A stretch of 63,995 bases of DNA, filler included, from Sanchytrium tribonematis (Eukaryota), in the NCBI GenBank assembly GCA_018985235.1. It is 8 parts of 8 records of this genome, joined end to end, with 100 filler letters (N's around TTAATTAATTAA, not from the genome) between each part and the next. Parts side by side here need not be neighbours in the genome. Positions count along the whole stretch, not along the records: positions 43,011 to 48,338 come from JADGIG010000620.1; 7 more parts are not named here. The stretch is one strand, 5' to 3'. The notes below the pieces were generated by a model that worked only from the letters and a program-made list of their open reading frames with translations, had not been told where the DNA came from and did no database searches. Each line of letters starts with the position of its first letter. Position 1 is the stretch's first letter. Below, piece after piece: positions 2,783 through 48,647 of this stretch. Position numbers and translations under genes: made by a program.

Positions 2783-3316
2783 TGCGTTGAATCAAATCTC
2801 ACAGAATGCAAGTGATACTACGGTTGAGGGAATTTTATATCTCTTTAAGTCAGCTAGAGCAGTAGGATAGTTTTAATCGTAGCTCTGTGTTTGTTTTGAC
2901 GAATGCCATTTAAACACTGCCACGTACCCAATAATCAAACGAGTGTCTCCTAAAATATGGCAGGTCCATCATTAGAGCACATGATGAATTTGATTAATTG
3001 TTTCAAAATGCAATTAGAGGCAATTCAGTTCAGAAGTAATTTCATTTACCAGATTGCCTTTGTTATTAATTAATAGGTAAATGAAGACTTGCCATACAAA
3101 CAATTATTGTCACGTGGACCATACATCGACTCCGATATTGGTCAGCAAGCATCACCCCAGCGTCATCGCAGGTTCTGATTGGTGCTTAAAATTTTGCCAG
3201 CAAGACGCCCAATCTCGTTGGCACATAAATAGAGACCATCCGACTGTCGCCAAATGCAATCTCAGTATATTCTGGTTATCAATAAAGGCGTACATATTCT
3301 ACCTAGTGATCATTTA

Positions 3317-3667
3317 ATGACACGTCACCCACAATCCAGATGTATGCAAATTCCTCATAAATTGACTGCAAAACTACTCAAGTATATCAAGCCCAAATTG
3401 ATCCCATTGGTTCTCAAACTGATTTGCTTATATCAGCTGAATGCTGAGCATGTTGCATTGGCGATAGAATACTATAAAATGTTGGATTGTGTGAGATCAC
3501 AAAAACACAAGATTATCGTATCTCTTTATTTGGCACTCAAAGTCAATCATGACTGCGTGATTAAAAGTAAAGCATGGGCTAAAGAATGCGGTATATCCAA
3601 TATCAAATTGAATGAATTAGAAATGATTTTATTGAAATTACTTGATTTCAACGTATATTTAAGATGA
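3317..3667 (+). CDS. Minimal PHO80/Pcl-type cyclin (cyclin box only)
   Basis: Motif IVSLYLALKVNHDCVIKSKAWAKECGISNIKLNELEMILLKLLDFNV matches the Pcl/PHO80 cyclin box. Confidence 0.75.
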   Translation: MTRHPQSRCMQIPHKLTAKLLKYIKPKLIPLVLKLICLYQLNAEHVALAIEYYKMLDCVRSQKHKIIVSLYLALKVNHDCVIKSKAWAKECGISNIKLNELEMILLKLLDFNVYLR

Positions 3668-3814
3668 ATAGACATGCTGTAAGCTACAAATAGTATTGGG
3701 ACTGGTAGGAACTTAATAAATCATTCTTTAATGGTCCTATTTACATGTTATTCAGTTGGTGCGCGTCTGTTTTTGCACATAAAAACACGGAGAAGTCTCT
3801 GAAACCCAATTTGC

Positions 3815-4772
3815 ATGACGATGATCGCAGGTAAATACAGATTGGGAAGGAAATTGGGCAGTGGATCATTTGGTGAGATCTATCTAGGCACTAATGTAGT
3901 CACTGGTGAAGAAGTAGCGATTAAAATGGAGTCTATACGTGCTCGCCATCCACAATTAGAATACGAAGCCAGAGTCTACAGATCATTAGCAGGTGGGGTG
4001 GGAATCCCATTTGTAAGATGGTATGGTCAAGAAGCAGAATATAATGCCATGGTCATAGATTTATTAGGCCCGAGTCTAGAAGATTTGTTTAATTATTGTA
4101 ATCGTAAATTTAGTTTGAAAACTGTTCTATTGCTCGCGGATCAAATGATTTCCAGAGTCGAATATATCCATTCTAAAAATTTCATTCACAGAGACATCAA
4201 ACCTGATAATTTCTTGATGGGACTCGGTAGAAGAGCCAATTTGGTCAATTTAATTGATTTTGGTCTGGCTAAGAAATACAGAGATCCTAGAACCCATTTA
4301 CACATCCCCTATAGAGAAAATAAGAATTTAACAGGTACTGCTCGATATGCGTCCATTAATACGCATTTGGGTGTTGAACAAGCTAGAAGAGACGATATGG
4401 AATCTTTGGGATATATGATGATGTATTTCTGTAGGGGCAGTCTGCCGTGGCAAGGATTAAAAGCAGCCACTAAAAAACAAAAATATGACAGAATTATGGA
4501 AAAGAAAATGACGACGCCCACAGAAGTCCTTTGCAGGGGATTTCCTAAAGAATTCACAGTGTATCTAAATTATTGTAAAGGATTGAGATTTGATGATAGA
4601 CCCGATTATGCGTATTTGCGTAGATTGTTTCGAGAATTATTCATTAAAGAAGGATTTAGTTATGATTATATATTTGACTGGACTATAATGAAATACGAAC
4701 GAGATGGAGAGAAAGGGTAATTTATATTTATTTAGAACACCTGAAGCACCTGTACAGCAACCACAGGAATAA
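3815..4772 (+). CDS. HRR25: Casein kinase I (HRR25/CK1 delta-epsilon type); exons 3815-4716 and 4736-4772
   Basis: [27 protein letters not shown] and [10 protein letters not shown] motifs. Removing the 19-nt intron gives the C-terminus [13 protein letters not shown], whose stop overlaps AATAAA. Confidence 0.95.
4717..4735 (+). other. 19-nt spliceosomal intron
   Basis: gtaatttatatttatttag; same length and 3' end as the other tiny introns. Confidence 0.75.
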
Positions 4773-11359: not shown

Positions 11360-14300
11360 CTAAGCTGACGAATGATCCTGATCAGCACCAGTTTCTTGAA
11401 TTATTTTTTCGCCAAATGTGGATTTTTTTAATTTCTTCAATAAATCAAATATTTCTGTCTCACTGCCATTTTTAAATGTGTTATAGATGTTGCTTGTTGC
11501 CAGATCTGTGTTTTCTACTAGGCATACTTCCTCAAAATGTGCAGTTGAATCAAATGGCTGCTCACAATACTCACAAATAGCTCGATATTCATCATTTCCT
11601 CGGAATGGCATTCGTCCCATTAAAAACAATACCCCCAATTTTAGTGTACTGTGGGAATATGTGTAATTGTATCGATTTTTCTTCAGTAAAATTAGCAAAT
11701 TTGAAGTTGTTTTTAATTTTGAGCCCCTATTAGCCCTGTTTTCATCCCACATGTCTTGTAATCTCTCTTCAACTGTTAATTGTAGTTCTTCAAGAGTATT
11801 GGCACTTAGTGGGGTGTAGCCATCCACAGTTTCACAGAAAGAAGTGTTAAATTTCAAGATTTCAATGTAATTTAGAGGAGTTCGCGGGTCAGATTGTAAC
11901 TGGTAAATGCAATTTCTCAATTGGGTCTCCAATGATATTCTATTTTTATTGTATAATTCATTGGAATTTAAAAATTTGCACAAGTATTCATGAATAAGCC
12001 TTGAGTGGCGAAAGACACCGTTGACAGCTCCTTTTCTAATTGATTCTAGTCTTTCTAGATATTTGACATCCCATAACGGTAGCCCGTAGCTCAAAATGGA
12101 TTCAATTACCCCTTTCACAAATAATGGTTGTCCATGAAATAGTTTATTTGCTTCTTCAGTATGGATTTTCTTTTGCACTGATGCGATTTGTTTATTTTTA
12201 TGAACCAGCTCGGCATCGTAGTCAATCCCATCACAATTGATGTGGATTCCCAGATATTTAATAAATTTTAAAGATTCTAATTCTTGATTATCTACCACAA
12301 ATGAGTATTCAGAAGATGCGCAAATTTGGTATTTATTAGGATTCGCCTTGAAATTATGGTCTTTGAGTTTACTAGTGATATTGTTGAGAATCAGTTGCAA
12401 ATAATTTGGATTATTTGCGCACAAGAATATATCATCTGCATACAAGCAGATGGCTATTTTGCTGTCATCGTAGTCTAGTTCTGAAAGAATTCGATCAATT
12501 ATAAATGAAAATAAGAGTGGTGAAAGTGTTCCACCTTGTGGAACACCCTGTTTCATTTCAATGGTTTGTTTTAATGAATCGCGCTTTAAGTAAAGAGATT
12601 GATTGACAATCAGAGATCTTAGTGCATTACAGTCAATAGGAGTAAATAAATTTACTACATTTTGTTCAATATCATCCCAATTGATATGATCAAATGCTGA
12701 AGATAAATCCAAAGATGCTAAATAAACATCTCCATTTCTTTTAAATTGTTTTATGGTATTTAATACGAAGTGCAACTGTGTCAAAGTGCTTCTAGATTGG
12801 CAGAATCCATGTTGACGGAAACTGGGGATTAAAATATACTTTAATTTAAAATAATACAAAATTTTTTCATATATTTTACGAACTGTAGGTAGGAGAGAGA
12901 TGGGTCTATAGAATTTCGGGTCACTATGGGATCCCTTGTTTTTATAAATCTCACAGATAGATGATTTGCACCAAGATTCTGGTAAATCGCCGTGAGTGTA
13001 GGCTTGTTGGAAAAGATGCTTCAAGACTTTGATGCCATTTGAAGGCAAGAACTTTATTGATGTATTTGGGAGTATACCACCAGCTGATTTCCTTGTATTT
13101 AATCTTCTTGCTTCCTTTCTAATTTTTTCACAACTGAAAAGTGATTTGGATTCTTGATAGGCTCGATTTATTTGTTCTTCTGAAGTGTGTTTCTTATTCC
13201 AACTATGATTTGGTGCATCAAAGTGATTTTTTTGATATGCAATCATTTCTTCTTCATTGCAGAATATGCGATTGGGATTAAAATTTGAATTTTTTATTTT
13301 GCAAAGTTTGTGGTAGGCATTTGTAGAGTCTTTATTAATTTCCTCCAACACTTCCAAGTGATTTTGATACACCTGATTCTCCATTTCCGAGTTGTATTTC
13401 TTGCGACATTGTTTAATTTCTTTTAACAAAATGATTCTGCGTCTCCTGGATTTGACTCGTGAGTAAGTCTGCTGCTTTCTTTTGATGTATTTGTTAATTG
13501 AATCCAAATTACTAGTAAGAATACGACACTCCGGGAAATTTGGGATTATTCCAAGTGTTTGTTTGTCAGCCGTGAGCACGCAACTTGTCAAGAAATTGTC
13601 AATTTCATTTACATTTATTGAATCTAACAGATTGTCATTATATTTCTTTATTAAATTCTGTAGCATTGATTGATATTGTTTCCTGAATTTGGGTATTTTC
13701 AATTTTTTCCAATTTATCTTCTCTAATGAAAGCATCATTTTATCAGTTTCTAATTCAATAATAGATGGCCAATGATCTGAGGTGTATTTGTCAGGTCTTT
13801 GTATAGTTAACAAGGACTTAACTGCATGTTGGAGGCTAGAATGGGACCAAAAGTGGTCCAATATTTTATTTGTATTTACCATTGTGCTGGTTGTTACATT
13901 ATGAAATACATACGATTTATTCAATAAATAACACTTCAATTGTTTGCTGAATAGATCTGATTTGGAATCTATTTCCAAGATGTTGAAATTCAGGTCACCA
14001 CAAATAAATGCATTGTGGGAAATTGCCTCATTGAGAATAGATTTGATATATTCTATATTTCGAGTTCTAATGTAATGAAATGGAATGTATGTGAATGCAA
14101 TATTTTGCCTATTTATCTTAAAAATATAACAATTGTCAAAAAATTTAATTTTATTCACACTTGTTACGGAATTATGAATGAACAAGTGCTGCTTATGGTG
14201 TAAATTTGAGTTTGGAAGATCCCATTGAGTATAATTATTGATATGTGGCAGATATTTATAGTTTTTAGACTCTTGTAACAGCAGAATGTGTGGCTCAAGT

Positions 14301-14584
14301 TCCAATAAATTGTTTAATTCTTGTTGATTCAGAACTCTTTTGTATCCACGGCAATTCCATTGCATGATTCTTAATTTGTTAGTGAATGTGCATGTGTAAT
14401 TGGACTCTCCATCTAAAGATTCAGGGATATTATAATTTATTTCTGATGGTGGATCGGAAATTTGTGTAAATAAAGTTGAAGAAAGTGTATTTCGAGCCAC
14501 TTTGTTTTGTCTAGTAGTGTTAATTGCTTGTCTTTTCAATGGAACCATGTCATTTGGTTCAGACTTCAAAATCTTTGTGGGCAT
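11360..14584 (-). CDS. LINE APE endonuclease-reverse transcriptase, uninterrupted 1074-aa frame
   Basis: All APE and RT motifs present, including YADD, plus the C-terminal CCHC. Confidence 0.93.
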   Translation of the reverse strand: MPTKILKSEPNDMVPLKRQAINTTRQNKVARNTLSSTLFTQISDPPSEINYNIPESLDGESNYTCTFTNKLRIMQWNCRGYKRVLNQQELNNLLELEPHILLLQESKNYKYLPHINNYTQWDLPNSNLHHKQHLFIHNSVTSVNKIKFFDNCYIFKINRQNIAFTYIPFHYIRTRNIEYIKSILNEAISHNAFICGDLNFNILEIDSKSDLFSKQLKCYLLNKSYVFHNVTTSTMVNTNKILDHFWSHSSLQHAVKSLLTIQRPDKYTSDHWPSIIELETDKMMLSLEKINWKKLKIPKFRKQYQSMLQNLIKKYNDNLLDSINVNEIDNFLTSCVLTADKQTLGIIPNFPECRILTSNLDSINKYIKRKQQTYSRVKSRRRRIILLKEIKQCRKKYNSEMENQVYQNHLEVLEEINKDSTNAYHKLCKIKNSNFNPNRIFCNEEEMIAYQKNHFDAPNHSWNKKHTSEEQINRAYQESKSLFSCEKIRKEARRLNTRKSAGGILPNTSIKFLPSNGIKVLKHLFQQAYTHGDLPESWCKSSICEIYKNKGSHSDPKFYRPISLLPTVRKIYEKILYYFKLKYILIPSFRQHGFCQSRSTLTQLHFVLNTIKQFKRNGDVYLASLDLSSAFDHINWDDIEQNVVNLFTPIDCNALRSLIVNQSLYLKRDSLKQTIEMKQGVPQGGTLSPLLFSFIIDRILSELDYDDSKIAICLYADDIFLCANNPNYLQLILNNITSKLKDHNFKANPNKYQICASSEYSFVVDNQELESLKFIKYLGIHINCDGIDYDAELVHKNKQIASVQKKIHTEEANKLFHGQPLFVKGVIESILSYGLPLWDVKYLERLESIRKGAVNGVFRHSRLIHEYLCKFLNSNELYNKNRISLETQLRNCIYQLQSDPRTPLNYIEILKFNTSFCETVDGYTPLSANTLEELQLTVEERLQDMWDENRANRGSKLKTTSNLLILLKKNRYNYTYSHSTLKLGVLFLMGRMPFRGNDEYRAICEYCEQPFDSTAHFEEVCLVENTDLATSNIYNTFKNGSETEIFDLLKKLKKSTFGEKIIQETGADQDHSSA

Positions 14585-18328: not shown

Positions 18329-21110
18329 TAGAAGGCAATAAAGAAACTGAACAGACCACAGATCAGAGTAGACAACACACATACTGATGGTATGTGTTCT
18401 GTGGGATTCTAGCACAATACCTTCTTCATCATATACTTCTAAAGCATATGTGTATATTGGCATCACCACTTCTCGATAAAATTGCTTATAAGCACCTTGA
18501 AGTGACTCAAACGTGCGTGTCCATTTAATCTGCCCAATTGCAAAATTGACTTTGTCAATGCGTGACTTGACATCTACTGCATAATCAATATTATCCCATT
18601 TTAAATAAACACTCAGATACTTCATATTATTTGCTTTGGGACTGATATTTCATTAGAAAGATTTAAATGCGTAATTTTTGAATCGGATGTGACGTATTGA
18701 AATTTCTGACTATTAGCAATAAATCCATGATATTTAAGCTTTAATAATATAAGATTACTCAATAATTGTGCATTTTGGTAGCTATTGCACACCAATAGCA
18801 AGTCATCGGCGTAGATGTGGATTGAAAAATTATTAGAATTTGAGATGGATAGTAAAATGCGATCCATCACGTAGGCAAACAACAGAAAGCTTAGTGAGCC
18901 ACCCTATGGAGTGCTTCTCATGAATGGAATGGCTGTTTGATTAGAATCAAAAGGGAATTAAATTGATTGTTTTGTGATAATGATTTTTAATAGATTCAAA
19001 TAGTGTGATTATATATGAGGTTTGAGTAATTCATTAAGATCCTTATGCAGAATACAATCACAGGCAGATGGGAATGTTTGAATTTCTTAAACTGAATAGA
19101 TCTGGCTGCTGCAGCTGCGCTGTTTGCAGAATCCATGTTGGCGAATGCTAGGATGTATTCTATCGAGTAGTAACATATTTGTTGGAAAATTTTATATGTG
19201 CGTGATAATAGGTTGATGGGCCTATATCTGCTAGTATCCCTTTCATTTCCGCTTTTAAACACGTCAAAAGTAACTGAGAGGAGCCAGGCCGATGGGAAAT
19301 TGCATTCAAGATAACATTGACTAAAGAAACTTAGAAATAATTCATATCCGATTTCTGGTAGATTTTTGAGAAGAATAGCCGGTATGGCATCACCAGACAC
19401 TTTGTTGCTGTTTGAATGCTTAAATGCATTGGTTATACGTTCAGTCGTGAAGACCTCTCTTGCAACGGCATTCACTAGATGACTTAATTGAAGGATTTCT
19501 TCTGGCCAATCAGAAGAATTTGGGGAGAAATGAGTCAGTTGGTACTGAATAGCTCTCTCAAGATCACAATTAAAAGAGTGATTAGGTCTCTTTGACTGTC
19601 GTAGTCTGCATAAATCGACAAAGGCGCTACTTTGGTTTTTATTAATATTCTCAAGATATTTTTTCTTTTTGCTCCTTGGATCTCTGATTTTTGATTCCTT
19701 CCTGATGCAGTCAATTTGGTGTCTAATGTTATCTCTTCGTGTAACTATGATGTTTTTCTTCTTCAGTTTGCGCTTCAATTTATTTTTACGAATATTTAGA
19801 ATTTGAATAACATTATCAAAATCATTCATTTGCGAGTTATCCAGGATATTGCTTATACCAAGTATTTTGGTTGCATGTTTAGTACAGACCTTCAATAAGT
19901 AGCTCCATTTATCATTCACAGAAATATTTTCATATGCAATCTTATTTGTCTCAAATTCATGCTTTAATTTTTCTTGTAGGGATAGGCGAAGGATGGGATC
20001 ATTCTTTAATTTACTCCATCTGATATTACGTAGAATTGCAATTGGGGAGTCAAGAGAATATGTAAATTTGATGGGGAAATGGTCAGAGCTAGTATCTTCT
20101 TCTGTTAATACCTCAACATTGCTAGTGCGATCTAGTTTGGATTGGTGGACAAGTAGAACATCATTTACATTAATACCATTTCTCATGGTGCTTATATTGG
20201 GAGAATTTCTACACGAATATGCAAAATTACTTATAAATGTCTCAAATGATCTTCCTACCCTATTTGACCCATTTTGAATCATGGACATGTGCATGTTGGC
20301 ATCACCAACAACAATACTTTTTAATTCAAATGCTACTTGGAGTTCTGAATGGACCAAAGAAAGATTCCCCATAATTCTAGGGGGAATATAAAGAAAGGAG
20401 AAGACATGTCCATCAATTTTAACTGTATGACAATGCTTTGTATTATGATTCATTTGAGTGATGTTATTAATGCCAATTTTGATGTATATGCATTGTCTGT
20501 CCACCTCGTGGAGGAATTTGAATTTAAATTGTGAATATCCATTTAATCGAATATCCTTCTTCGTATCTAATCTATATTCATTCAAATGTAAGATATCTGG
20601 TCTGTGCATACCTATTAGAGATCTCAACTCTGTTTTTAGATTTCCTTGCCTGACTCCTCTACAATTGTAGCTTATGACGCAAAAATCATGAATTTGATCT
20701 GCCACACTGTGATCAGTGAGTAGATCACCATTTCCACCTCTAAGACGTACATCAAAGTCATCATCAATCAATTTTATCCCAGAATAGATCTTTGACTCAC
20801 TTCAATCCACATTTTCGATTCTTGAGTCAATGAAGTGCTTTACATCCTTTAAATTACATTGTTTAAAGTAGTAGAATGGGTATGAGTTGTTGTTATCCAT
20901 TTTAATCCATAATAAACTCTGTTTTGGCTTATTTGATTTTAGATACAAAATTGGTTGAATCACTGTTTTGGATGGTTCTGGTCTGCAGATTCTTTTGTTG
21001 TACACTGTATTAGCAGCAGGTGTTGCCATGGGACGCTTTAGAGAAGAGGAAACCAATGAATCAGCATTTATTGAATTAACTTTGATTCGCCTCTTCTCCA
21101 AAATTAAAGT
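18329..21110 (-). mobile_element. Degenerate LINE copy 2 (Ubl-RLRGG-APE-RT) with frameshifts and stops
   Basis: VRLRGG then ISYNCRG, LHLNE, GDANM, SDHFP, YRPINLL; IYADDL and KYL in the downstream fragments. Confidence 0.88.
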
Positions 21111-21318: not shown

Positions 21319-22440
21319 GTGAAGCGTGAAAGTGATTCTGACGAAAATATTGACTTGTTACTGCTTTATTTATATTTTAAGGCACCCAAGAAGATCCCAA
21401 GAAAGCCACGATCATTTTACCAACCAATTCCTAGAGCATACATTTGGTATCATTTACAAGTAGCTGTTTTACATGATAGACACTATAGATTCTTTTTTCG
21501 TATGACTAAATTGCAATACGAATCCCTTTTAAATATTTGCATGCAAAGCGATCATCATTATTTACTAAATTCCCCAGTCGCATTTTCGAAAAAATTACAC
21601 ATCTATTTATACTTTGTTGGGAATAATCCATATAATACAGAGATGGTAGATCGCTTTGGCGTAGGATCACCACTCACTTATGTATTGGAAGTTGCCAATT
21701 TATTGAATGAATCACTTTATAACAATTTCGTAAAATGGCCAGATTTGACAGAAAAAGTAGCCATAAAACAACAATTTGAACAATATTGTGGTTTTAAAAA
21801 TATAATTGGATGTATAGATGGAACCCATGTGGGGATATCTGGTATTGGCAAATTCAGAAATGGATATACAACAAGAAAGAGTGTCTACGCAATTAACGTG
21901 ACATTTGTGTGTGATTATAATAAACAAATAAGATATAGTATAATTGGCTGTCCAGGTGCATATCACGACAATCGCGTATTTGAATTATGTGATTTGCACA
22001 ACAATGAATCACAATATTTTGATGGAAATGATGTCATGTTGGGAGATTCTGCATACAAGGGATCCAATAATGTGGTTGTGCCTTATACAAGTCCATCAGT
22101 AAAAGAGAATGTCAGTTTTAATTATTTACACGCCAAAGCACGTGTAAAAGTTGAAAATACGATTGGATTAAACAAGGGAAAATTCAAGGTGATGGGAACA
22201 CAAATTAGAATCAAATCAATTAGAAAAATAGTGATTATCATCAAATCAATTACAGTGGTGCATAATTTTATCATTCAATACAGTTTGAGAAACAATACAG
22301 AAGATGTTTGGGAGGAGGATGAATTACATGAAAATGATTTGCAAGTTGTAGAGCAATATCCAGAGCATGCAGCCATAAATTATAGATTTAATGTATCAGC
22401 ATTTGAAAGAAAAGAGATTATGAAGAGGACAAATGAATAA
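21319..22440 (+). mobile_element. PIF/Harbinger DDE transposase (HARBI1-like)
   Basis: IIGCIDGTHV, GAYHDNRVF, LGDSAY, FNYLHAKARVKVENTIG motifs; convergent with a Myb/SANT partner gene. Start codon unclear. Confidence 0.92.
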
Positions 22441-33493: not shown

Positions 33494-36400
33494 ATGGTCT
33501 ATGTCAAACTTTTAAAGGCTGAATTGCCATCTAATAATGAATTTACTCAACCATACATTGAAATTACATTTTGCAACGACACCCAAAAATCAGCCACATC
33601 TTCTGGAGAAAATCCTGAATGGGATAATGCAGAATTCATTTGGAGTAATAAGTCAGATACGCTCCTTATACGTCACAAAGATGTTAAATTGGGTAAAGAT
33701 ACTGTATTGACAAATTGTAATATTTTCGTCCCAAAACTCCCTAAAGTGGCTCATGGATGGTTTACACTGTTTAACGCGAATCAAGAAAAAGCTGGAGCTA
33801 TCCTGCTAATAATTGGTATCAAGGAAAGGCCAGATATGAACAAATTGCTAGCTGTTAGAGATTATTCATGCCAATTTGACTTGAAGCATACTGAAAATAA
33901 CCTATTTCAAGATAGCATCAAAAATATACTATTAAAAATCACTAATATATCAGATAATCACCATCAATCATTTTCCATTCTATCTCGTGAACCAGTCGAA
34001 AAGTTAGGATCCCTGGTTTACAAATTTATTAACTTATTCGATATTAATCTAAATCATGAACTTTTATTAAATACATATGGAAGAGTAACACCTGGAAGAG
34101 TCCCATTCATCATTGAAAATGGAATAATTACAAACCCAGAATTTGGACCAATTGATGAATCTGTGATGAATGAAGAATTAGGTGTATATCACTTTGCAAT
34201 GAGGCACACAAAAGACAAAGAAATTGGGTTTACTATAAAATGTGGAGAATTGGTGAAATTACCAGATTCAAGATTATTTAGCAGCAGTGAAGATGTAACC
34301 ATATTTACCGTTAGAATCACTAAAACGAAGAATTGGGTACGTGTATTGGCATCAAATAGAATCGATGGATACTCCATGAGTGACAAATACTATTTAAAAC
34401 GAGCAGAAATTTTAATTGTAGAATCTGGTAAATTTCATATATCCTCTAGTTCACACATAAAGAGGGTGGATTTCCAATTAACGTTACCAGATGGTAATAT
34501 GAACATGAAATTTGGTATTAATTACGGCATGGAGCAATCCGAATTGAAGTCTTTCAATTTAAGTGATAAGATCCCTTATGTAAAATACACATTTGATTTA
34601 TTGAGTCAAGATGAATACGATTCAGTTCATATGCCATCCGTAGTTGGAGTAGCAGATCGATTTAATGGATTTATCTCTAGTGCCTCTAGTTTCTTTTCAA
34701 TCCAAGGTAGTTTCCAGAATGCATCAGGTGGATCTGCAACATCTACTGGTGCTATTGGACCACCTGTTAATGGTGCAGCAATCATCGAATATCAGAAATC
34801 TCCAATAGATGATCTCTATCTTCTTTTTGACGGTGAAACCCCCTTGAGTTTAAATGGAATTGAAAAATGGCATATTTCTCAATTAAATGAGACACAAGTG
34901 ATTATTCACTACCATAATGAGATACTTGCATTGGAAAATGGCAAATTGGAAGTTCAAAAGTGGCAAGAATCATCAAGCCAACAAATTTGGAATATTTTAC
35001 GTGATTCTGATCATATCAGCAATGAAATACACTCATCTGATGGGGCAATTGACACTCTTTCAAAATATATTAAGAACAATTCAGACGAATCGCTTAAATC
35101 GATTAAATCAGCAACAGAAACATCTATTTCAATACTGAAAGTGGATGATCAAATTAAATGGTTGGAATCACTCATGAATGCTTTAGGTATCTCCACAGAA
35201 GAGATAGAATTGAATGAAATGAGTCCAATTCCGATTCAGTTTGGGAAACTAGGAAATGATCCAAGTAAGAAAACGCTACTTATTTATGGCCATTATAATG
35301 AATTAAATTCTATACTTAAATGGTTGGTAGCCATTAATGCACATATTAAATTTCAAGTGGAATTACCCATCAATTTATTATTCTGCTTCGATTGTTCGAG
35401 AAAAGACGAATCAATGAGTGAATCAATCATTACAGAGAGTCAAAAATACTTTGAATCTGCTGATTATGCGTATATTTGTGATGATATATGCTCAGATAAT
35501 GAATTAGAGTGCATTATTCCAATTATGAGTGAAAAAAAGCAATCAAAAAGCACTCGAATCCAATCTCTACTACGTAAAGTTGAAATCATCAGGTCACAAA
35601 TCTCCAATCCATCCACTCTTGCCATTCTTCAATATTTTGGCATTGGATTTCCACAAGATCATTTTGCAGCAATTCAAAGATTTGAAGCTTCTTTTGATTC
35701 TAATCAACTGGGACATGTATTCATTGGATATTCTTATCTTCATGGCCATGGTATCCAACAGAATGTTGATAAAGCATTGTTTCATCTCCAATTGGCATCC
35801 GATCAGAATATTCCTTCAGCTCATTATTATTTGGGTGATGTCCATCAATACATCAAGAATGACCTCCAAATGGCACTTGAATACTATCAGAAAGCAGCAG
35901 CATTGAATTATAGTGCAGCATTCTTTCAAATATCCAAATTAAAAGAGAATCATAAAAATCTAGAATATCTCCAATTGGGTGCTGATTATGGCAGTTCTAA
36001 ATGCAATTATAAATTAGCATATTTATTAGAATATGTCATGAATTGTTTCTTGAATATGGAAGCTGCTACTGAATATTACAAGGTATCTGCTTATTTGGGC
36101 TATTTTCCTGCTCAAATCAAACTAAATACTCTAAATATCACAATATCAACTGAAGTGGACGCACCTAATGTTCCAATTATTTACAAGTTTGATCAAACTG
36201 TTTCTGAGACGGTTCAAGTATCTGATACTATATCAGAATTAGAATCCGTAATTAAAAATATGAAACATATCAAAGTAGGGGGTGCCCCAATTCCAAGTTC
36301 TAAAAAATTACATGTTCAATTGATTGATGAAACAGATATTATGGATGAAATGGAAATCAGCAAGTCCGATTTACGCGGCGCTGGTGTCTATTTCAGGTTT

Positions 36401-37475
36401 TACTTGAGAAAGTGGCAAGGGAGAAATGTCGCTATTAAAAAATTTGAAAATATTCCCTTTAAAAATTCAAGGACAACCAGGTCTTTTTCTAATACTGCGT
36501 CGTTAAGGAGGCTTATTTTGAGTGAGATTATATCATTTCAAAATCTATCAAATGATCCAAATATATGTCAATTTTTTGGAGTCACATCCATTGATGGACA
36601 TTTAGGTGTCATTATGGAATATTTAGACAATTGCTCACTTCATACATGGCTTCATATAATGCCCAATGCTGATTTAAATCCAAAATCACTTACAAATCCA
36701 CAAATTAATAAAATTCAACTTGGGATTGCCAGTGGTTTGAAATACATGCACGACAATGAAATAGCCCATAATGATCTCAAACCAGCCAATATCATGCTAG
36801 ATCATCAATTTAATCCTAAATTAATTGATTTTGGAATGGTTGAAATTATTAATTCATCTTACAAATCAGTCCACAGCTCTAAAGAATTAAAATTAGGCAC
36901 AGCTAATTGGAGAGCCCCAGAATATTGGCAATTCAATCAACAATTTCATCAACATCAGAATCAATTTCCATTTGCAGGAGATGTTTTCTCCTTTGCAGTT
37001 ATTTTGGGAGAAATGGCAACTCGTCAAGTGCCATGGTCGGGTAACAGTAAAAGTAACATTGAAAAATCAATCCAATCAGGGAAGCGTCCATACACCAAAG
37101 ATCAAGTGAATCCCAAATTATTTGAAATTATGGAAATGGCTTGGCAACAACATCCAAAAGATCGACCCAATATATATTTAATCACTCAATTATTACATAA
37201 TTATATCCATCCATATGATATTTCATCTCCATTACCAATTGGGATTGAATTATTTAGATTATTCAAGAGATCCATTGAATTGGCAAATGTGGAATTATTT
37301 GAGAGATGTCTGCATGAATTAATCAAATACAATGACATAGATGATATAGAGCGGTATTTTACCCAAATTAAAGATCTAAGACCTAAATGGATTGAATTAA
37401 AGGCACAAATTACAAATCCATTCACAATTGCATTGCTGAATTATTTCAATATTGGCTATTTTCATTTCACTGACG
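33494..37475 (+). CDS. Mosaic protein: C2 domain, degenerate M20 dipeptidase (Dug1/CNDP2-like) fragment, SEL1 repeats, TKL-type kinase; 3' truncated
   Basis: C2-like N-terminus (PYIEI...ENPEW); LGNDPSKKTLLIYGHY and ELPINLLFCF; SEL1 (GYSYLHGHGIQQN, ALEYYQKAA); kinase VAIK, HNDLKPANIML, DFG, WRAPE. Confidence 0.85.
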
Positions 37476-37575
37476 NNNNNNNNNNNNNNNNNNNNNNNNN
37501 NNNNNNNNNNNNNNNNNNNTTAATTAATTAANNNNNNNNNNNNNNNNNNNNNNNNNNNNNNNNNNNNNNNNNNNN

Positions 37576-42910: not shown

Positions 42911-43010
42911 NNNNNNNNNNNNNNNNNNNNNNNNNNNNNNNNNNNNNNNNNNNNTTAATTAATTAANNNNNNNNNNNNNNNNNNNNNNNNNNNNNNNNNN
43001 NNNNNNNNNN

Positions 43011-43391
43011 AATATTGAAAGTGATTTAGATGTTGTAGTATCCCGTATTAATGAAATCAAGTTTCTAGTGGCTCAAGTAGACTCAAATGACAATGAATTG
43101 CTAAATATGCTGCAATTGTTGACGCAACATGAAGCTATCAAATTACTGATTGCATATTTGGATGATTTTGTGGAAATACGATTACAACATGACTCTAAAA
43201 GTGAAGAAATTAAATGGCTAGAAGAACAAATTGCAACACTAAAACACTCCGTGCAAGCTTACAGAGAAGTGGGTCAAAATGAAGATATGGAAGATTTATC
43301 ACCGTATATAGAAGAGCAATTAGAAGAGAATGCTAAACAATATTTAAAACATACTGTTGCTTCACAATTAAAAGTGAAAGCAGCAGAATAA
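43011..43391 (+). CDS. C-terminal part of a coiled-coil protein
   Basis: Open from the contig start; heptad-rich; stop overlaps AATAAA. Confidence 0.55.
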   Translation, partial: NIESDLDVVVSRINEIKFLVAQVDSNDNELLNMLQLLTQHEAIKLLIAYLDDFVEIRLQHDSKSEEIKWLEEQIATLKHSVQAYREVGQNEDMEDLSPYIEEQLEENAKQYLKHTVASQLKVKAAE

Positions 43392-43431: not shown

Positions 43432-44570
43432 ATGTGGCTTGTGAAAATGTCTAATGTCCCAAACTATTCACTTGTCACGGATCCGATGTTAGCTCTGATT
43501 CTATATCTCATTTACGCGTGTATTGGATTATTCTTTTTCATTTATTTTAGAAATTCCATTACAATTCGAAATAGACTTCCAAAATTAGTATTAATAGAAA
43601 GTTTATTGATTATATTAAATGGATCATTTAGTATTTTGAATATACATCCATTTTTGGGTACCAGATTGAGTTGTGAGTGGTTTCAATTTATTGCTTCTAT
43701 TTTAGGATGTGTTTTATTGACATTTTTGATGATGCGAATGAGTTTTGTATACCAGTATCTGATGAATGAAGTAGATATTAAATCGTATGATGGATTAATG
43801 CTCATTTCAAAAACATTTTGGGATAAACACAACAATATTCGCAAATGGCCCATTTTCATCATCTTTATAGTGCTTTTAATAGCCAATATATTAAATGCTA
43901 TTCTACCCACTTATGCATTTCAACAACAAACTGGTTTAACCGTCTATCCCTTTGAATGTTTGCAAAATGGTGTCTTCTTTCTCACTTTATATGATTCCAT
44001 CTTAATGCTCTTATTTCTAGCATATTCCTTTCAATTTATACGCTATAGAATATTCGATCAAATCTACATGAGTGTCGAATTGATCTCATTTACATTTGTT
44101 TTAATAGGGGCAACGATTATTTATTTTGCATTAAATATGCATATTTACATTGATGCAGCCATTTTACAATGCTGGATTGGTCTATTTTTTGCATTATATT
44201 TCCCAGTATTAGCTTATTTAAACCATATGCATATGATCCACCGTGAATTATCCAAATCCGTCCATTCCATGATTGATGAAAAATTAATGTCACTTTGCCG
44301 TCAATTTTATTGTGAAGAAATTGGCATCTTTTTAGAAGCATATGAGAAATATAAAGTCAATAATATCACCATTGATTATATCATCACCATGTTTATTGGT
44401 ATTTTCATTTTTATTTAGAAACAGGTGCCCCATTTGAATTGAATATTAGTTCCAATTTAAAAGATAATTTGATGAATACCAATGGTGAATTACAAGTCAT
44501 GTATTTAAATCAAATTTATTCAGAAATGAAATTATTGGTGCAATTGAATATTTTACCGTATATGACGTGA
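43432..44570 (+). CDS. 7TM-RGS protein (GprK/AtRGS1-like architecture); 20-nt intron at 44399-44418
   Basis: Seven hydrophobic segments, IRNRLPKL motif, then CRQFYCEEIGIFL...MFI|ETGAPFELNISS RGS signature after splicing. Confidence 0.85.
44399..44418 (+). other. 20-nt spliceosomal intron
   Basis: gtattttcatttttatttag; removal restores FIETGAPFELNI. Confidence 0.85.
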
Positions 44571-44608: not shown

Positions 44609-46861
44609 ATGGATTTGAGTCGTCATACTGGATTTATCGTGGTTGGGAATAAGACTGATCCAACTTGTAAAAATTTGAAAATTAGAATCGAAAACATCAT
44701 TAAAACAAAAAGCCAACACCATTATCAAATTGATCGCACGATTTATGCAGAATGGACAGAAATATGCAATACTTATAAAGATAGGGAAAATAGTGATCTG
44801 GATGTAAACAATCCTCAAAGAGTTGTGTTTATTCATGGCATGTTGATTAGATGCGCATCTGAAAACATTATCAAAAATACTAATCTTGATAATTGGATTC
44901 AAAGCTGCTATGTGAAAGAGTCTTTGATTATTATTATAGGGGATACTGATCAGATTGAAAAAGAAATCTTGTTTGACATCTTATTTGCTTGTAATGGGGA
45001 TGAGAAGGATACCGTAATGCTGCTTGAGAATGCTGTTCAATCCGATACTAATCTTTATGCCACCATCATCAATAACAAAGCCATGTTTCTGTTAAATCAA
45101 CCCACCATTGATGAATTTGAAGATTTATATCCAAAAGCATTGAAATCTTGCAATTCTGGAAAAATCAAAACCATATATTGTGGACATGGAAGTCAACATG
45201 GCATTCATTTAGCAGATGGCTCGTATAGTGGTGATAGATTAAATTGGATTCTAAAAGGTGTCACCTTAAAGCACAGCCCTGGTAGTGGAAAGGTCAGTTT
45301 TTATATCAATTCATGCTTTGGCATTGATTTTGCTATTCAAGCTGATGATAAATATGATTGTAATCACTTTGGAACGTCTTTGAAAGGCGGATTAAGCATG
45401 GCGGATAATTTTTCTAATTTGAGAAGAGGCACAGCACTTAGATTAAGAAATGCAAAAGAAATCACTGAAGAATTGAAAAATACCAATGTAAAGATGTGTG
45501 AAAAGCTCCGCAATGCTGATAGAAGCATAATTAGTTCAATTGAATTTTCCAACATTATAATGAACGTTGTTCCATTATCAGTTGGACCCTTGCACGCTGT
45601 AGGGGAAATAAATGAAGCATTGAGAAGGGATCTCAAATTGGATAAATTAGACAAGCCATTCAATCAGTTAATTACCCGTGGAAAAGAAGCCAGTCAATCC
45701 AAGAAAGAGACGGACAAGTTTCAAAAAATGAAAGAGAAATTCGAAAAAACTCACAATCATGACACTCCCAATCTTTACAAAAATCCCACTTTACATGTTT
45801 ATCAAGCTAAAAAGGGTGATTCATGTTTATTTCAATGGGATGGCATTAATATTCTGATTGATGGTGGATATTCTAAATCTCAAATTTGTTTTTGGCAAGA
45901 TGTACAGCATTTAGATATATTAGATGCTGTGATTGTGACGCATGGAGATGATGATCACATTAATGGGATTCTGCAATTATTTGATTATGCAATTTTGATA
46001 AAGAACAAGAAACTACCTGATAATTCTCAAATGCCAATGATTAAAAGCTTTATCGCACACGCATTAGATGAGAATTACAATCGAGGATTCAAACATAGCA
46101 AACAACTAGTAGATAAAGCAAAGGACCTCGAAATTGGAATTGTTAAACCAGCAAAATATTTAAAAATTGATAATTTATGGATTCATTTTATTCTACCAAC
46201 TGATGTGAATCTTAAAAATTACCAAGCCGAGATGAGATTAAGTGATATCAATAGATGGGGAATTGTCATGTGGTTTGAGTGTAAACAAGATGGCAAGAAA
46301 CCCATTAATTTGTTATTTACTGGGGATGCAGATGGTGAGGAAATTATTACCGGATTAAATGAATATTTAGACAATTATTACATGCATACTAAAACTAATT
46401 ATAATGGCGACACACATGTGTATCAGCCTCCTCCATCTTTTCAAGGCGATGCAAATCCAAGTAAAGTCACTATTCCAAAGTTTGATTATGTGGATATGCC
46501 ACATCATGGATCTCAAGAAAATAGTCATGTTAAATTTCTGAATGCCATTAGAACAGATAAATTAATGATTTCAAGTGATGGTGCTACGTATGGAAATCCA
46601 AGAAATGCAGTTGTGGATTTAATTAAGGAAAAGGAAAAAGGGGTCAAAGAAGAAAATGATTCAACTTGGTCATATAAGAAACTATATTGCAACTATAAAC
46701 AAGTTTGTAGAAGAATGAGTGATGTGGCAGATGGTGATTATGGTAAATCCATGTGGACGGGAACAAAAGTAATTTTCAGCGATGAAATCGCCACATTTCC
46801 AGTTGGACAAGAGACAAAAGTCACAATTCCAATTCAATTTAAAAAATTGAATAAACAATGA
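44609..46861 (+). CDS. MAP1/Futsch-N-terminal-like protein: caspase-like (clan CD) domain plus ComEC-type metallo-beta-lactamase domain
   Basis: IYCGHG and INSCFG; KGDSCLF, ILIDGG, CFWQDVQHLD, VTHGDDDHINGI, LFTGDA, PHHGS. Confidence 0.75.
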   Translation: MDLSRHTGFIVVGNKTDPTCKNLKIRIENIIKTKSQHHYQIDRTIYAEWTEICNTYKDRENSDLDVNNPQRVVFIHGMLIRCASENIIKNTNLDNWIQSCYVKESLIIIIGDTDQIEKEILFDILFACNGDEKDTVMLLENAVQSDTNLYATIINNKAMFLLNQPTIDEFEDLYPKALKSCNSGKIKTIYCGHGSQHGIHLADGSYSGDRLNWILKGVTLKHSPGSGKVSFYINSCFGIDFAIQADDKYDCNHFGTSLKGGLSMADNFSNLRRGTALRLRNAKEITEELKNTNVKMCEKLRNADRSIISSIEFSNIIMNVVPLSVGPLHAVGEINEALRRDLKLDKLDKPFNQLITRGKEASQSKKETDKFQKMKEKFEKTHNHDTPNLYKNPTLHVYQAKKGDSCLFQWDGINILIDGGYSKSQICFWQDVQHLDILDAVIVTHGDDDHINGILQLFDYAILIKNKKLPDNSQMPMIKSFIAHALDENYNRGFKHSKQLVDKAKDLEIGIVKPAKYLKIDNLWIHFILPTDVNLKNYQAEMRLSDINRWGIVMWFECKQDGKKPINLLFTGDADGEEIITGLNEYLDNYYMHTKTNYNGDTHVYQPPPSFQGDANPSKVTIPKFDYVDMPHHGSQENSHVKFLNAIRTDKLMISSDGATYGNPRNAVVDLIKEKEKGVKEENDSTWSYKKLYCNYKQVCRRMSDVADGDYGKSMWTGTKVIFSDEIATFPVGQETKVTIPIQFKKLNKQ

Positions 46862-47962: not shown

Positions 47963-48647
47963 AACAATAAAGTATTTTCAAATTTAACCCCTTTTTGCAA
48001 GTCATTGTCACCAAAATGGGAAGTCAATTGACCCATTCTTTGTTGTGTGACCATGATGTGATACAGACTCATATTGATTGGTTCATGGGTATTTTTTGAG
48101 GTACAAGGAGTCCTTTTCAAACATGAAAAGCAATCATGCGTTTCCATTGATGCTATTTGCCCTTACTATATTATTTGGGTTTCCTGATATTACCATTAAT
48201 GATGGACAGAAAATGTGTTGGATTAAAGTACTAAAGCACGGAACGGATAAGAGGATATACTGGTACCAATTAATTGATATTGAAAAGAAAACTGTTGTAC
48301 AAAATACGGTTTCAAAGAATCATCTAATTGAAGTGCTANNNNNNNNNNNNNNNNNNNNNNNNNNNNNNNNNNNNNNNNNNNNTTAATTAATTAANNNNNN
48401 NNNNNNNNNNNNNNNNNNNNNNNNNNNNNNNNNNNNNNCAGTGGTATCAAAAGCAAAAATGCCAAATCCAAATTCCAGATTTCTGCTCAAATTGATATTA
48501 AAAAATTCACAAACACTTTGGTGATCTTCATGGTTAGTCTCGCCCTGGACGAGACAATTATGTATTATCCATTTCACGGAAGTAATTTGATTTTATTTAG
48601 CTTTTACCAGAAATATTCAGTCAATACCATATGCCATTGCTATTATT

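Follow-up and report, generated by a model that had tools for sequence, protein, structure and literature searches.

A MAP1-related protein of Sanchytrium tribonematis that combines a predicted clan-CD domain with a ComEC-type metallo-beta-lactamase domain

The window analysed here, i.e. the whole stretch of 63,995 nucleotides joined from eight parts of the Sanchytrium tribonematis genome (GCA_018985235.1), encodes within the part derived from JADGIG010000620.1 a protein of 750 amino acids (aa) in which a predicted clan-CD (caspase-haemoglobinase) domain precedes a metallo-beta-lactamase (MBL) domain of the ComEC/Avs1a type. The protein is encoded by one uninterrupted open reading frame (ORF), its domains follow the same order as in the animal proteins MAP1A, MAP1B, MAP1S and Futsch, both of its halves are related in sequence to these proteins, its candidate catalytic residues are among the best conserved positions of its family, and MAP1 has lost the His and most of the metal ligands. 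The clan-CD fold of the N-terminal half is predicted from a structural model. The 750-aa protein is probably, although by no means certainly, an active two-enzyme protein (a cysteine peptidase joined to a metal-dependent phosphodiesterase or nuclease) and the uninterrupted relative of a module that is split and degenerate in MAP1.

The ORF (750 codons plus stop) extends from ATG to TGA as a single exon at positions 44609-46861 (+), as established from the ORF listing, the translation and a codon check, and its product aligns end to end with homologues of 690-881 aa. All of the motifs quoted in a preliminary description of this DNA proved to be real when checked codon by codon against the window. 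The peptide PTLHVYQAKKGDSC...THGDDDHINGI corresponds to residues 393-454, the motifs YCGHG, INSC, HGDDDH, TGDA and PHHGS are found at residues 190-194, 233-236, 445-450, 571-574 and 631-635, respectively, and LIIIIGD, LLNQPT and HLADGSYS are all present in the translation.

The family to which this protein belongs is rare and eukaryotic. When residues 1-390 were compared exhaustively by phmmer with 1.84 billion representative proteins, 19 proteins were retrieved at E ≤ 0.001 (the query included), none of which is a known peptidase or a MAP1 protein. Fifteen new matches to the N-terminal half were obtained: 11 also carry the MBL_MAP1B domain at E ≤ 0.01 (10 of them Lactamase_B as well), and four are short proteins with the N-terminal domain only. 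The two members whose source is named come from Stygamoeba regulata (Amoebozoa, Discosea) and Pedospumella encystans (Stramenopiles, Chrysophyceae), and some of the other members are encoded on contigs that measure 0.6-3.9 Mb. This search, in which a source is named for two members, identified the N-terminal domain in no prokaryotic protein, and the two-domain form was not found on viral contigs, where the two loci detected are both MBL-only.

The MBL domain (residues 391-700; 45779-46708, +) is recognized by Pfam, PADLOC and NCBIfam models and through ComEC chains of the PDB. A match to PF00753 (Lactamase_B, residues 411-457) at 28.5 bits, above the gathering cutoff of 22.7, places it in the MBL superfamily, and the match to PF25281 (MBL_MAP1B) reaches 57.8 bits for a cutoff of 37.6 at residues ~391-460, over profile positions 19-87 of 279 only; the latter family is matched by 15 of the 21 family members at E ≤ 1. 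More of the domain is covered by the PADLOC models LmuA (1.8e-27), RTasMBL (3.8e-20) and Avs1a (6.9e-18), and the family profile finds solved ComEC chains in the PDB at 4e-7. The protein is a member neither of Avs1a as defined by NCBIfam (NF041809; 1.7e-19, 69.8 bits versus an equivalog cutoff of 420) nor of ComEC/Rec2 (TIGR00361; 19.5 versus 190.05 bits, over the last ~55 profile positions only), and it has no match to the ComEC membrane domain PF03772.

Motif alignments of 16 full-length members agree with the earlier proposal that this protein, unlike MAP1, keeps the MBL ligands, since they reveal the full ligand set of the ComEC/Avs1a clade. Motifs 1 to 5 are all present (D404/D418, H445-x-D447-x-D449-H450, N548 as a possible ligand at the motif-3 position, D573 and H632/H633). 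D418, G419, G420, H445, D447, D449, H450 and N548 are invariant in the 16 sequences, and D404, T571, D573, P631, H632, H633, G634 and S635 are nearly so. Motif 2 (HGDDDH; 45941-45958, +) thus has its four His and Asp ligand positions strictly conserved, motif 4 (TGDA; 46319-46330, +) has two nearly invariant residues, and motif 5 (PHHGS; 46499-46513, +) is shared with Avs1a and ComEC. All six family members that were checked have motif 2 in the HxDxDH form, as do 14 of 19 bacterial Avs1a/ComEC hits, the five others having HxHxDH; HxDxDH is therefore the normal form of this clade and not a defect. The loop between motifs 4 and 5 (residues 589-626; 46373-46486, +) corresponds to the site of a giant insertion in animal MAP1. 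It is ~20-30 residues longer in the 750-aa protein than in the 14 other complete members (53 residues from D573 to Y627 versus 21-35; one further member is incomplete).

The likeness of the MBL half to MAP1 is far above chance by sequence comparison. BLASTP aligns residues 393-456 with residues 274-339 of a fish MAP1B-like protein (33/67 identities, E 1e-13), and in a phmmer search of PDB chains the best match is mouse MAP1S (E 7.1e-7, residues 392-458 versus 233-298). Three MAP1-family proteins, from a firefly (3466 aa), from a fish (the MAP1B-like protein, 3876 aa) and a third of 2246 aa that is incomplete at its C-terminus, were retrieved by the family profile at 6.8e-25 to 1.2e-17, and each has MAPB1_N followed by MBL_MAP1B. 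The N-terminal halves were compared by hhalign with the sequence restricted to the part upstream of the MBL domain. The probability was 80.7% with six family sequences and 93.9% (E 1.6e-7) with 21, the latter match spanning residues 150-223 of the family and 43-117 of MAP1, whereas the reversed target gave 0.2% and 30 column shuffles gave at most 0.6%. The resemblance to the MAP1/Futsch N-terminus put forward in the preliminary description therefore holds for both halves, and the profile similarity is significant for the N-terminal half as well. The Pfam model of the MAP1 N-domain (PF23415, MAPB1_N) has no match in the 750-aa protein itself at E ≤ 1; it matches 6 of the 21 members weakly, the best at 0.0035, below its cutoff. 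In mouse MAP1S, residues 16-213 are the MAPB1_N region, and two chains of the PDB entry 9ijj carry the MAP1S sequence according to phmmer.

Several of the residues retained by the protist family have been lost in MAP1. The column of H193 is occupied by Y, Q and Y in the three MAP1 proteins, and mouse MAP1S has a Pro opposite the fish Gln (pairwise alignment, read by eye). The column of C236 contains Cys in two of the three and Ala in the other, in a low-confidence part of the alignment. Motif 2 is replaced in MAP1 by TRLNNSN, THIGADN and TRLNEKN and motif 4 by PGSS, PGNA and PGST, whereas the GD, IDGG and CFW motifs are retained; CFW after IDGG is found in both the protist family and MAP1 but in none of the four bacterial sequences aligned. 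In a maximum-likelihood tree of 38 MBL domains, the three MAP1 proteins group with the 16 protist members, apart from 19 bacterial sequences selected by word, with a support of only 85/53 for the split between eukaryotes and bacteria. In this tree the firefly and fish rows were cut too generously (the envelopes reach the C-terminus) and the columns filled in at least 30% of the rows were kept, so that noise is possible. The phylogeny is in keeping with the proposed kinship. The long projection and microtubule-binding region of MAP1 is not present in the 750-aa protein, in which 38 residues separate the motif-4 helix from the motif-5 strand, versus ~2900-3260; the protein is hence a relative of MAP1 and not a member of that family.

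The N-terminal half comprises a small alpha/beta region (residues 1-100; 44609-44908, +) and the predicted clan-CD domain (residues 101-345; 44909-45643, +), delineated from the AlphaFold2 model, VIA-align and hhalign. The first region is modelled at a predicted local distance difference test (pLDDT) of 54-82; its resemblance to the thioredoxin fold is weak (Z 6.4-7.1, within the background of the tool), it lacks a CxxC and its P18 is nearly invariant. Modelling of the whole protein from its single sequence was not usable (mean pLDDT 33.5); with the 21-sequence alignment, AlphaFold2 gave a mean pLDDT of 73.1 and a predicted template modelling score of 0.71, the blocks of residues 100-250 being at 86-96. 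In this model, strand 185-191 is directly followed by G192-H193-G194 and strand 229-234 by S235-C236, so that a His-Gly and a Cys are predicted at the C-terminal ends of adjacent strands, as in clan CD. The codons of the candidate catalytic residues are located at 45185-45187 (H193, in YCGHG) and 45314-45316 (C236, in INSC), both on the plus strand. These two residues are, with P165 and G192, the only invariant columns among the 21 sequences, which share ~20-25% identity; G111, Y190 and D203 are nearly invariant. Both are also invariant in the 16 full-length members.

The model was compared by VIA-align with 48,161 chains. The first rank is chain 4c of 9ijj (9ijj_4c; Z 10.7, root-mean-square deviation 4.0, 173 residues aligned, chain residues 15-212). 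Among ranks 2-29 (Z 10.0-7.3), 25 of 28 rows are clan-CD proteins by title: a SAVED-CHAT protease (Z 10.0), legumains (9.7 and 9.3), OaAEP1 (9.2), caspase-9 (9.2), the glycosylphosphatidylinositol (GPI) transamidase GPI8 (9.1) and caspase-3 (9.1), together with metacaspases, MALT1 and clostripain; the three others are GSU0716, a chain of a type VI secretion system complex and ArnAB. The caspase-haemoglobinase matches, at Z 10.0-8.0, cover model residues ~101-344. As unmatched models typically reach a best Z of 7-8 with this tool, values of 10-10.7 are moderately above the background, and it is the uniformity of the list, drawn from one clan, that carries the weight rather than the Z values. 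With chains that contain only the large subunit of a caspase, the aligned ranges end at model residue 237 versus 286 in caspase-1 and 164 in caspase-6. The range ends would place C236 opposite caspase-1 residue 285 and caspase-6 residue 163, the catalytic cysteines of these two enzymes. In the model, the Cys strand is followed by a variable helical insert (residues 245-306; 45341-45526, +) that precedes the final two strands. Its length varies within the family and its pLDDT is below 50 at 261-279 and 292-306; from the topology, it would occupy the position of the caspase inter-subunit linker.

By sequence alone, the leads to known families are few. The non-MBL Pfam families matched by more than one of the 21 members at E ≤ 1 are MAPB1_N (6/21), Raptor_N (4/21) and legumain C13 (2/21), the best Raptor_N match being 1.1e-5 in one relative (25.7 bits versus a cutoff of 27), while another relative gives 2.6e-4. 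A profile of the N-terminal domain retrieved no peptidase from the PDB sequences (best match 0.039, an unrelated protein), and the leads from the ESM Atlas are all below 0.9 (Peptidase_C25 in 46% of one cluster and CHAT in 41% of another).

The last block of the MBL domain aligns with the light-chain domain of MAP1, so that the MBL fold of MAP1 is likely split, with the interruption located between motifs 4 and 5. MAP1 proteins are polyproteins that are cleaved into heavy and light chains, and according to the text of PMC3496707 the light chains have a conserved C-terminal domain of ~125 aa that binds the heavy-chain N-terminus. Residues 627-674 of the 750-aa protein, from the PHHGS block onward, match residues 3765-3815 of the fish protein by BLASTP (33% identity, E 0.002). 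The hidden Markov model (HMM) of the family MBL domain (337 positions) matches the firefly protein twice, with positions 7-211 at residues 198-432 and positions 214-285 at 3342-3419; in the fish protein, a first block reaches up to ~540 and a second match is found at 3765-3818 (i-E 6.9e-7). An HMM of the tail only scores 23.0 bits on the fish protein and 9.1 bits on the firefly protein, respectively. Among the controls, shuffled tails reach at most 4.1 bits for the fish (181 shuffles scored) and 6.0 for the firefly (200 shuffles), whole proteins shuffled in blocks (20 for each) reach 1.1 and 0.2, and the reversed sequences -2.9 and 0.9. In a global MAFFT alignment, of which only the C-terminal block was used as the N-terminal part of the protist sequences is scrambled over the low-complexity region of MAP1, the C-termini of 13/13 protist sequences line up with that of MAP1, and a Y, a D and a P are invariant there. 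The PHHGS block aligns with Y-x-D-L-x-Y-[IV]-P-[HN]-[HN]-[CG]-[SN] at the extreme end of MAP1. The insertion in the loop between motifs 4 and 5 amounts to ~2900-3260 residues in MAP1.

The motif-5 position reads P-N-H-C in the fish protein, P-H-N-G in the firefly protein and P-H-H-G in the 2246-aa protein, which, being incomplete, ends with the start of the same block. MAP1 lineages thus differ in the amount of motif 5 that they retain.

A complex prediction made with two pieces of the fish protein (residues 254-545 and 3752-3876) gave a score of 0.90, the best of three controls being at 0.00. Among solved complexes, 51 of 78 reach the mark used for this score, as do 2 of 108 mismatched pairs; for eukaryotes, the counts are 39 of 65 for solved pairs without a similar older complex and 2 of 126 for unrelated pairs. 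At least 86% of the contacts are common to the runs, which were made without alignments, and the partner pLDDT is at least 87. The tightest predicted contacts join residues 499-503 to 3766-3770 and residues 275-278 to 3872-3874 (fish numbering). The first pair brings the segment aligned with the motif-4 strand next to the strand leading to the motif-5 position, and the second brings the first MBL strand next to the last residues of the protein. Such predicted contacts are what one continuous MBL sandwich would show.

Several results weigh against the proposed reading. The N-terminal half of the 750-aa protein has no Pfam match of its own at E ≤ 1, and none of the named peptidase families (C14, C13, C11, C25, CHAT, C50) is matched at cutoff by any family member. 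A Foldseek search of the N-half model found nothing in the PDB at E ≤ 0.001: a probability of 1.00 is given to caspases and C11 proteases (E 2.4e-3 to 8e-3), amid GTPase rows with high root-mean-square deviations (no match at E ≤ 0.001 was found among viral models either). Of the clan-CD-like dyad announced in the preliminary description, the predicted fold and the invariant His and Cys at the expected strand ends stand. The VIA-align values exceed the background only moderately, as said above. Moreover, the first-ranked chain 4c is presumably the second MAP1S chain of 9ijj, and the MAP1S model of this entry is derived from AlphaFold2 and was fitted into a 5.5 A map, according to the text of PMC12297659. 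On the MBL side, the motif-3 position is an Asn (N548), as in the Avs1a/ComEC hits, instead of a His, the matches to bacterial Avs1a (5.5e-22) and to MAP1 (6.8e-25) are about equally strong, and the split between eukaryotes and bacteria has the modest support given above. Finally, the complex prediction concerns the fish MAP1 and not the 750-aa protein, and halves of a fold can pass it by likeness to solved or remembered structures.

Taken as a whole, the two-enzyme reading can be viewed as follows. H193 and C236 would form the dyad of a peptidase that is probably latent, like other clan-CD enzymes, and that would be switched on by assembly or by cleavage within the insert 245-306. ComEC-type MBL domains are reported to have a binuclear metal centre and to cleave phosphodiester bonds. 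The MBL domain of the 750-aa protein would likewise bind two metal ions through H445/D447/D449/H450, D573 and H632/H633 and cut phosphodiester bonds. The role of the 750-aa protein in the cell might be either regulated self-destruction or defence, or housekeeping. MAP1A, MAP1B, MAP1S and Futsch would then derive from a domesticated protease-nuclease, an origin that we consider rather probable. Their N-terminal domain would be a pseudo-caspase, their MBL domain would be split by the projection region, and when the C-terminus of the light chain binds the N-terminus of the heavy chain, two pieces of one MBL fold would be reunited, the protist family having remained uninterrupted with its residues intact. 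It is much less likely that the ancestral caspase-like domain processed its own protein and that the cleavage of the MAP1 polyprotein is left over from this activity.

The preliminary description went further in proposing a self-activating protease-nuclease acting as an immune or cell-death effector, by analogy with bacterial anti-phage effectors. This more specific role is possible but doubtful. The MBL half does match models of defence systems (LmuA, the MBL associated with the DRT reverse transcriptase (RT), and Avs1a), an activated SAVED-CHAT protease of a defence system ranks second among the structural matches of the N-terminal half (Z 10.0), and the patchy and rare distribution of the family (19 in 1.84 billion) might resemble that of conflict genes. 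However, ComEC belongs to the same MBL clade without being a defence protein, the 750-aa protein showed no sensor domain, its neighbours are uninformative, the window shows no expansion of paralogues, and viral contigs yielded no two-domain form (two loci, MBL-only).

It is somewhat less probable, and on balance unlikely, that the MBL domain is the sole enzyme and that the caspase-fold domain is a non-catalytic scaffold or regulator, as in Raptor, c-FLIP and MAP1. Clan-CD pseudo-enzymes are indeed found among the structural matches (c-FLIP, Z 7.2; Raptor, Z 6.9), Raptor_N is the best Pfam lead and no peptidase family model is matched at cutoff. Nevertheless, of the four columns that do not vary among the 21 divergent sequences, two are H193 and C236. 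Furthermore, the His is replaced in 3/3 MAP1 proteins, which lack the catalytic residue set; its invariance in protists and its replacement in MAP1 are what one would predict if this His is important to the protist proteins, which speaks against a scaffold.

A purely structural, non-catalytic cytoskeletal or ciliary protein similar to MAP1S is very improbable. MAP1S is located in the C2b projection of the sperm central apparatus, where it is bound to HYDIN, and Chlamydomonas FAP312 is its reported homologue, according to the text of PMC12297659. FAP312 is a proteomic C2 candidate. One family member comes from a chrysophyte, i.e. from a group of flagellates, but another belongs to Stygamoeba regulata, which is not known to have flagella. 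The full conservation of both catalytic residue sets would be unexpected in a structural protein, and the 750-aa protein has no long projection or repeat region. Least probable of all, and hardly tenable, is that an MBL gene of bacterial defence was recently transferred into a eukaryote and bears only a superficial likeness to MAP1. The matches to bacterial Avs1a do equal those to MAP1 in E-value, but the N-terminal domain is independently linked to MAP1, CFW follows IDGG in the family and in MAP1 and not in the four aligned bacterial sequences, MAP1 groups with the protist family in the MBL tree, the named members belong to two eukaryotic supergroups and the composition of the gene fits its AT-rich surroundings.

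The window is AT-rich (GC 0.30-0.38) and its gene content is eukaryotic: ankyrin-repeat proteins, kinases, a copine, an amino-acid permease, an RT/endonuclease of the long interspersed nuclear element (LINE) type and a Harbinger-type DDE transposase. Neither a tRNA nor an Rfam match was found in the window, tblastn detected no second copy of the 750-aa gene there, and no STAND NTPase was found among the neighbouring ORFs scanned. The gene neighbourhood is uninformative on the role of the protein. The ORF located 5' of the gene (328 aa, window positions 43432-44570) encodes a multi-pass membrane-like protein without Pfam match. It may run on past a possible 20-nucleotide GT...AG intron (44399-44418) to a stop near 44570, which would lie only ~40 nucleotides ahead of the ATG of the 750-aa gene; an RGS-like tail seen by eye after this intron was rejected, as it has no Pfam support. 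A 107-aa ORF at 43068-43391 (+) has a sub-threshold match to a Swt1-like HEPN domain (E 3.4e-4, 21.3 versus 27.5 bits) that may be due to chance. Mobile-element ORFs are located at 11360-14584 (-), 18996-20771 (-) and 21319-22440 (+); they include a LINE-type ORF of 1074 aa with Exo_endo_phos and RVT_1, a second ORF of the endonuclease-RT type and a transposase of the Harbinger type with DDE_Tnp_4. The ORF at 33494-37531 (+) encodes a protein kinase of 1345 aa, in which a Sel1 repeat precedes the kinase domain. Runs of N at ~42920-42966 and ~48340-48430 break an ORF containing AMPK1_CBM and the ORFs near 48.3 kb, where gene models are incomplete.

Part of this picture was already known. The MBL-like domain of MAP1A, MAP1B and MAP1S is described in the text of PMC11377751 and corresponds to Pfam PF25281, MAPB1_N is an established Pfam family, and the binding between the heavy and light chains of MAP1 is reported in the text of PMC3496707. 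In open-access papers and bioRxiv, no description was found that gives MAP1 a caspase-like N-domain or a split MBL fold (the supplementary figures of PMC11377751 and PMC12297659 aside), nor one of an uninterrupted MAP1 relative in which all catalytic residues are kept. Among the proteins associated with microtubules in neurons and cilia, the MAP1 proteins are major ones, whose conserved N- and C-terminal domains have so far had no mechanistic explanation. If the proposed reading is true, these end domains originate from the fusion of a clan-CD peptidase with an MBL hydrolase of the ComEC type, the light chain would bind the heavy-chain N-terminus for a structural reason, i.e. one fold split by a giant insertion, and the 750-aa protein would be a tractable enzyme in which ancestral activities can be assayed. 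As a eukaryotic protease-plus-nuclease architecture whose nearest prokaryotic MBL relatives include defence components, it would also be a candidate for studies of cell death and immunity in protists.

Compared with known systems, the closest counterparts of the 750-aa protein are the animal proteins MAP1A, MAP1B, MAP1S and Futsch, which have the same domain order, two homologous halves and CFW after IDGG, their C-terminal light-chain domain being equivalent to the last MBL block. The 750-aa protein differs from them in being uninterrupted, in lacking the microtubule-binding repeat region and in keeping H193, HxDxDH, TGDA and PHHGS, whereas in MAP1 a Y or Q takes the place of the His, motifs 2 and 4 are lost, motif 5 is kept in part and the insert of ~2900-3260 residues is present. 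ComEC, Avs1a, LmuA-type proteins and the DRT RT-associated MBL belong to the same MBL sub-clade, with the blocks GD, IDGG, HxDxDH, Asn, a TGDA-like motif, PHHGS and S-x-N/D-G. The 750-aa protein is distinguished from these by the absence of the ComEC membrane domain and of a STAND, SMC or RT partner, by its eukaryotic origin and by its fusion to a clan-CD-like domain, with which none of the bacterial MBL hits is listed (precomputed Pfam content). The Raptor N-terminal caspase-like domain (PF14538), a pseudo-peptidase scaffold, is the best Pfam lead for the relatives of the 750-aa protein, and Arabidopsis Raptor gives a Z of 6.9; the match remains below cutoff (25.7 versus 27 bits), it does not come from the 750-aa protein itself, and the downstream domains of Raptor are different. 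With the clan-CD peptidases (C14, legumain and GPI8 of C13, CHAT, clostripain of C11), the predicted domain shares its fold and strand order, and its His and Cys are 43 residues apart, a spacing that is 42-48 in caspases. It differs from these peptidases by belonging to no named family by sequence and by the helical insert of ~60 residues that follows its Cys strand.

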